NCBI RefSeq assembly: GCF_048403405.1 | Contig: NZ_CP183129.1 | Length of the DNA stretch: 64,000 nucleotides | Origin: Escherichia coli | GTDB lineage: Bacteria; Pseudomonadota; Gammaproteobacteria; Enterobacterales; Enterobacteriaceae | Reading direction: 5' to 3' (one strand) | Shown: positions 25,912-26,439 of the stretch, in pieces | Layout of the letters: each line of letters starts with the position of its first letter | How positions within the stretch are numbered: position 1 is the stretch's first letter | Position numbers and translations under genes: made by a program | Notes under the pieces: generated by a model | Told to the model about the DNA's origin: nothing | Seen by the model: only the letters and a program-made list of their open reading frames with translations | Databases searched by the model: none

Positions 25912-26439
25912 ATGATACTTTGGTCTGTGAAAAAAGAAACCGATATCCGGCGTGGAAGGCATTGTGTTTTCCTGATGCATGTTCACCTGGTCTTTGTCAC
26001 CAAATACCGACGTCAGATTTTTGACCATGACGCGACAGAAAAACTACGCACTTACTTTTCAAAGGTATGTGCTGATTTTGAAGCTGAACTGGTTGAAATG
26101 GATGGCGAACCAGATCACGTCAATTTGTTAATTAACTATCCTCCCAAACTGGCGATATCCAGTCTGGTAAACAGCCTCAAAGGCGTATCGGGTAGGTTAC
26201 TGCGACGAGATCGACCAGATATTGCCGTCAGGTATTACTACAAAGGCGTTTTGTGGAGTCCTGGCTATTTTGCCAGTAGCTGCGGAGGTGCGCCAATATC
26301 CGTCATCCGCCAATACATTGAACAACAGCAAACACCTGGTCAGGTGGAAAACCGCGCCTTATATCCCCGCCCTGAAGGACGGGGTTTTACGGCGCACCGG
26401 ATAAAGAAACAGTCAAAATCACTCAGCAAAACAGGCTGA
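25912..26439 (+). CDS. tnpA: TnpA Y1 (HUH) transposase of an IS200/IS605 element (up to 175 aa; the native C-terminus may be shorter)
   Basis: ATG at 25912; HCVFLMHVHLVFVTKYRRQIF first strand, conserved GGAPISVIRQYIEQQQ catalytic-Tyr region; the HUH position reads DHVNLL (His-Val-Asn). Confidence 0.85.
   Translation: MILWSVKKETDIRRGRHCVFLMHVHLVFVTKYRRQIFDHDATEKLRTYFSKVCADFEAELVEMDGEPDHVNLLINYPPKLAISSLVNSLKGVSGRLLRRDRPDIAVRYYYKGVLWSPGYFASSCGGAPISVIRQYIEQQQTPGQVENRALYPRPEGRGFTAHRIKKQSKSLSKTG

Follow-up and report, generated by a model that had tools for sequence, protein, structure and literature searches.

The HUH motif consists of two histidines with a hydrophobic residue between them, which in subclass 1.1 is V or I. 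In Y1 transposases these histidines, together with a Gln on the helix that bears the Tyr, hold the divalent metal by which the scissile phosphate is activated. H64, H66 and Q131 make up the metal site of IS608 TnpA, and the YxxxQ signature and the role of Q131 have been described for this family (PMC6006769). IS608 TnpA is a dimer with hybrid active sites, and mutation of H66 is reported to inactivate it, the construct described being H64A (PMC3597680). HUQ is a natural functional variant in the Reps of circoviruses and in Replitrons, and Gln54 coordinates Mn2+ in a crystal structure (PMC9973303, PMC10288648). For IS609, no new insertion was recorded in mutation-accumulation lines of K-12 (PMC5009759).

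The stretch of DNA analysed here, the window, is 64,000 nucleotides of an Escherichia coli chromosome (contig NZ_CP183129.1, assembly GCF_048403405.1) that includes nrdR, yajI, tsx, yajD, secF and secD. Within it a copy of IS609 interrupts yajI, and the element and its surroundings are laid out as follows.

24653..26400, minus strand: IS609 (IS200/IS605 family), 1748 bp, inserted in yajI; delimited by comparison with the empty site and by its ends at six sites
24523..24652, plus strand: 5' fragment of yajI (SadB/YajI lipoprotein, DUF3251), separated from the rest of the gene by the IS
26401..26810, plus strand: 3' fragment of yajI
26401..26404, minus strand: target tetranucleotide 5'-TTAT-3' abutting LE (ATAA on the plus strand), 6/6 insertion sites
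26354..26395, minus strand: imperfect subterminal hairpin of LE (DNA fold -17.3 kcal/mol, z = -3.0)
24662..24683, minus strand: subterminal hairpin of RE, CCACGTCC-TTCA-GGGCGTGG (DNA fold -15.0 kcal/mol, z = -3.7)

The top strand of the transposon is the minus strand of the window, with LE at 26400 and RE at 24653. Its boundaries were taken from the uninterrupted yajI of strain MEW (...CAACTCA/ATAAAGAAACA, the slash marking the junction), and against this empty site no target duplication is present. The same element ends are found at six different insertion sites, and at all six of the sites examined ATAA follows directly after the IS end ...GCGCACCGG; read on the minus strand, TTAT stands immediately before LE and the element closes at the far side with RE and its final TCAA. 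Insertion 3' to a fixed tetranucleotide is the pattern of the IS200/IS605 family, and it is the pattern found here. The core of the LE hairpin, CCCCGTCC-TTCA-GGGCGGGG, lies at 26365-26384. Both subterminal hairpins are intact and share the same TTCA loop, and 9-10 nt follow the RE hairpin, ending in ...TCAA at 24653, an end and a spacing that IS608 has as well.

The copy is 98-100% identical to IS609 copies across E. coli, where the element is present in 5015 of 5426 complete genomes. Because the yajI::IS609 junction itself occurs in 340 of these genomes, we regard the insertion in yajI as old and vertically inherited. The lipoprotein gene, now in two pieces (24523-24652 and 26401-26810), is accordingly split by the IS in 340 of the 5426 complete genomes, and its loss is evidently tolerated in that lineage. 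The coding content of the element is given by two genes and a putative guide region.

25912..26439, plus strand: tnpA open reading frame, 175 aa, of which residues 1-143 correspond to a Y1 transposase (ORF list, profile matches)
24696..25904, minus strand: tnpB (insQ), 402 aa, intact open reading frame that matches Pfam OrfB_IS605, Cas12f1-like_TNB and HTH_OrfB_IS605
24653..24763, minus strand: probable position of the TnpB guide (omega/reRNA) scaffold, from the tnpB 3' end through RE, placed by the architecture of the TnpB family

The initial annotation of this locus described an apparently intact TnpB beside an altered TnpA, and for TnpB we agree: the 402-aa frame is open, scores 388 bits with NCBIfam guided_TnpB (NF040570) against a cut-off of 100, and finds the TnpB of ISDra2 (8bf8/8exa) at E = 1.3e-54. 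The RuvC motifs GLDAGV, VIEDL and NADVNGARN, with the D-E-D residues, are present in its translation as assigned by eye. Over the tnpB 3' end and RE no known guide-RNA family scored above its Rfam gathering score, and the scan of 24640-24769 (minus strand) returned only the sub-threshold hits HgcC (23.8 bits, gathering score 50) and RAGATH-18 (28.1 bits, gathering score 44.9). The two genes are transcribed in divergent directions, and tnpA continues outward past LE. The annotated GTG start of tnpB at 25904 (minus strand) and the ATG start of tnpA at 25912 (plus strand) are divergent and just 7 bp apart, so that each promoter must lie inside the coding region of the other gene. In other genera the homologues begin about 5 codons later (MKKETD.../MTKETD...).

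The product of tnpA is clearly recognised by family profiles, scoring 137.8 bits with Pfam Y1_Tnp (PF01797; cut-off 23) and 143.1 bits with NCBIfam transpos_IS200 (NF033573; cut-off 55). In phmmer comparisons its relatives in the PDB are found at E values of 1e-16 to 1e-20, with IS608 TnpA at 3e-19. Two short segments of the gene hold the residues that matter for catalysis.

26116..26124, plus strand: position of the HUH motif, reading H69 V70 N71 (codon reading and phmmer alignment)
26314..26328, plus strand: the catalytic residue Tyr135 (26314-26316) and the metal ligand Gln139 (26326-26328), each intact and aligned to Y127 and Q131, respectively, of IS608

In the window sequence, codons 69-71 of tnpA are CAC GTC AAT, encoding H69-V70-N71, with the Asn codon AAT at 26122-26124. 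When TnpA was aligned by phmmer to Y1 transposases of solved structure, its segment 'pdhvnll' fell over 'kdhihil' of IS608 TnpA (2a6m/2vhg) and over 'pdhihlf' of Sulfolobus proteins, which places N71 at the second His of the HUH motif, the equivalent of H66 in IS608. At the other end of the active site 'rqyieqqq' aligns with 'kqyienqq' of IS608, pairing Y135 with Y127 and Q139 with Q131, and RQYIEQQQ therefore carries the Y motif with its Gln four residues downstream. The sequence and the alignment to proteins of solved structure bear out both of the initial observations, namely that the motif reads HVN, with the codons and coordinates given above, and that the catalytic-Tyr region is conserved. 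The HUH motif itself is incomplete, its second His being Asn. By descent the tnpA of the window belongs to the family, but one defining catalytic residue is missing from it. The A at 26122 is the derived base; every other in-frame copy of IS609 that was sampled has C there.

It had initially been suggested that AAT could be a sequencing error. We consider the likelihood of a sequencing or assembly error to be practically nil, because the identical A is found at the same yajI locus in seven independent complete assemblies from Japan, the USA and Spain; two further genomes carry the same base at another locus. The Asn codon is therefore real. A second suggestion, that HVN is a tolerated variant of this IS lineage, does not survive comparison with the homologues. 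We compared the best 120 homologues in the database, from E. coli, Salmonella, Proteus, Photorhabdus and other genera. Among these close homologues, all 112 in which the motif could be read by pattern have HVH, and the remaining 8 keep the second His, several of them varying at the first His or at the preceding Asp. For more distant relatives, cluster representatives at 50% identity were searched exhaustively with HMMER, which yielded about 148 that cover the motif position; 121 of these have H-u-H and none has HVN. The others show scattered replacements, most of which a single nucleotide change in a His codon would produce (R, P, Y, L, Q, D), and many are fragments. This scatter is characteristic of random decay rather than of an alternative motif. 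A functional variant of the HUQ or HUN type would be an amide conserved across a lineage of otherwise intact elements that move or replicate, and what is found instead is a rare allele. HVN is rejected as a lineage-typical motif, and to judge from these alignments it is a rare derived allele that is neither adaptive nor typical of its lineage.

The same rarity is evident within E. coli. A 61-mer around codon 71 was placed at 9740 sites in 4990 of the 5426 complete genomes, and only 9 of these records match it exactly. A 41-mer specific for AAT, which matches only where the A is present, was found in 9 of the 5426 genomes at one place per genome, as against about 9740 IS609 copies. Seven of these nine copies lie in yajI, where HVN thus occurs in only 7 of the 340 genomes that have the junction, and the remaining two belong to the soil isolates VCSW5 and VCSW7, in an old insertion within a TetR-family pseudogene adjoining ytfB. 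In none of the nine carrier genomes is the AAT allele at a new insertion site.

In the VCSW copies AAT lies on a haplotype with about 27 differences from the window copy, in a TetR-site insertion that is common to O157 and M1/5, and we therefore rejected the idea that the VCSW strains record a transposition of the HVN copy. Their tnpB contains stop codons, and because their tnpA is frameshifted upstream of codon 71 the codon is not read as Asn at all. A further context is provided by SC418, whose yajI copy has the A on a haplotype like that of strain 746, while strain 746 itself has C. The distribution of the C-to-A change, in the unrelated VCSW copy and in SC418, suggests that either the mutation recurred or short tracts were exchanged by gene conversion. 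Its presence in the VCSW copy could be a hint of recurrence, although the gene there was already frameshifted.

The reading frame of tnpA shows other signs of erosion. At the native stop position (26341-26343) the window copy and most of the sampled E. coli IS609 copies have CAG, so that translation of TnpA runs through the LE hairpin and into the flanking DNA, here yajI, and acquires a tail specific to the site; proteins in the database range from 160 to 254 aa. The copies of O157:H7 and OkiPb have TAG at codon 144 and encode a TnpA of 143 aa, and the homologues of Salmonella and Proteus end at the same place. In strain TUM14771, whose IS and flanking DNA match the window at 100% identity, the identical gene is annotated by NCBI's PGAP as a pseudogene, 'missing C-terminus', the label that PGAP gives to these read-through genes. 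Among the 13 distinct IS609 haplotypes that we compared, tnpA is intact with its native TAG in only 2 (O157 and OkiPb), whereas tnpB is open in 10. The lesions are varied: L96* in K-12, the O111 yedK copy, GF131 and Z1323; a -1 frameshift at 25999 in GF131, VCSW and Z1323; Y76* in the yajI copy of strain 746, which keeps HVH; and loss of the start codon in the yajI copy of GF131, the one with the -1 frameshift. L96* alone was counted at about 3373 places and L96 at about 4480. In a crude count over the 13 haplotypes, made without a tree, tnpA has 21 nonsynonymous or stop polymorphisms to 7 synonymous ones and tnpB has 40 to 31. The 21:7 ratio is about the neutral expectation, and the count agrees with the other evidence in pointing to a tnpA that drifts while tnpB is conserved. 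The tnpA of IS609 is decaying across E. coli in general through many independent lesions. The HVN tnpA is otherwise an open frame in every one of the seven yajI carriers, the divergent SC418 haplotype among them.

The initial annotation also raised the question of whether other copies in the same genome have HVH. We examined one carrier genome, that of TUM14771, for such a copy. Candidate positions at TetR/ytfB and at ydcL-ydcO were rejected, both sites being empty by synteny, and the second copy was located between yfeD and gltX by means of a 41-mer with a rare allele seen in the gene-converted copy of strain TUM1226. This second copy does have HVH and an intact tnpB, but its tnpA is truncated by L96*. 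No intact IS609 tnpA is present in TUM14771, and consequently neither of its two copies would be mobilisable by an IS609 transposase. The genome also carries an intact tnpA of the IS200C type (positions 618368-618826 of the TUM14771 record), from a different branch of Y1 transposases. In SC418 the 61-mer search found no second copy of the tnpA region. There are nine positions at which the yajI copy of TUM1226 departs from the window copy, and at each of them it agrees with the yfeD-gltX copy of its lineage. Gene conversion between the two IS609 copies is thereby indicated, over at least 665 bp within tnpB at the window equivalent of 25049-25713.

We propose that the window contains an old, vertically inherited IS609 in yajI, and that H71N is a minor derived allele that arose within a small E. 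coli lineage. In this reading a single C-to-A transversion at 26122, from CAT to AAT, replaced the second His of the HUH motif by Asn. With one metal ligand replaced, cleavage of the IS ends is expected to be abolished or strongly reduced. That H71N itself inactivates TnpA is the likeliest reading, by analogy with the H66 mutants of IS608. The element of the window would be unable to move itself, and its carrier TUM14771 would have no intact IS609 tnpA to act in trans. We hypothesize that H71N is one neutral step in an ongoing pseudogenisation of IS609 tnpA during which tnpB and the end hairpins stay intact. Overall we assign a probability of roughly 0.85 to the interpretation that H71N is a loss-of-function or strongly impairing missense change, and a neutral step in the decay of an IS that was already fixed in place. 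The initial proposal, in which impairment of the transposase would leave the IS immobilised but its TnpB intact, is right as to outcome, which fits a rare derived allele at the H66 position that is seen at no new site and stands beside an intact tnpB. It goes astray as to cause, because tnpA decays across E. coli in general and the yajI insertion is old; H71N is thus a symptom, not the cause, of the immobility.

Two other explanations deserve weighing against neutral decay. Since an amide ligand works in the HUQ Reps, partial activity of N71 is conceivable: the amide oxygen of Asn71 might serve as a ligand of the metal, in the manner of the Gln of circovirus Reps and Replitrons (PMC9973303, PMC10288648), in which case HVN would be tolerated and the transposase still active. 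The open remainder of the frame and the intact Y135 and Q139 agree with such activity, but Asn is one methylene shorter than Gln, the H66 mutants of IS608 are inactive, and no close or distant relative has HVN. The allele, moreover, was found only once in each genome and at no new site, and the lost native stop, with the nonsense and frameshift lesions of sister yajI copies, argues against selection on tnpA. We therefore consider a still-active HVN transposase very unlikely.

Alternatively, the HVN TnpA may be catalytically dead yet still bind the hairpins and be retained for that reason, repressing excision, acting as a dominant negative, or stabilising an element that keeps TnpB. The frame is open in seven genomes and on two haplotypes (the window type and SC418), and since the active sites of the TnpA dimer are hybrid (PMC3597680), a dead subunit might in principle poison its active partner. 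However, TUM14771 has no intact partner TnpA to be poisoned, the allele is found in only 7 of 340 yajI copies, the nonsynonymous-to-synonymous ratio of tnpA is roughly neutral, and nothing specific speaks in favour of retention, which we consider very improbable. Put as a single statement, that the H71N TnpA either has low-level activity with Asn as a ligand or is an inert hairpin-binder that locks the IS609/TnpB unit in place, the claim is highly improbable. Were the Asn-ligand activity true, it would be the first natural HUN Y1 transposase.

Under neutral decay, H71N amounts to a rare missense allele of no unusual kind, in an IS that is known and is decaying widely, and thus to an instance of ordinary gene decay. 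It is of little importance alone, but it offers a clean natural example of how IS200/IS605 elements of E. coli lose tnpA by many lesions while tnpB stays intact, which agrees with current thinking that genomes can retain TnpB when no active transposase is present. It may also be of use as a lineage marker, and it provides a ready-made His-to-Asn variant with which to study the tolerance for metal ligands in Y1 transposases.

Among known systems, the laboratory mutants of IS608 at H64 and H66 belong to the protein family of IS609 TnpA and share its fold-defining motifs, and N71 of the window stands at the H66 position; they differ in being made in another IS and in that none of them has Asn. 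IS608, with tnpA and tnpB in the same direction and TTAC as target, also differs from the window IS609 with its divergent genes and TTAT target. The HUQ Reps belong to the HUH superfamily and likewise have an amide residue in place of the second His, one that still ligates metal; they are, however, of the Rep class and have Gln, not Asn, conserved across lineages, whereas HVN is a rare allele of one IS copy. The IS609 of O157:H7, in the TetR-family pseudogene adjoining ytfB (tnpA WP_000604943.1, 'IS200/IS605-like element IS609 family transposase'), is like the window copy in its 1748 bp, its 98.7% DNA identity, its ends, its TTAT target, its divergent tnpA and tnpB and its 402-aa TnpB; but it has HVH and a TAG after codon 143, and with these an intact 143-aa TnpA, where the window has HVN and CAG. 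The IS609 of K-12, with insQ adjoining ydcO and a tnpA pseudogene, resembles the window copy in combining an intact tnpB with a disabled tnpA, and differs in the lesion: K-12 has L96* (TTA to TGA) and keeps HVH, whereas in the window copy L96 is retained and the lesion is the missense change H71N.
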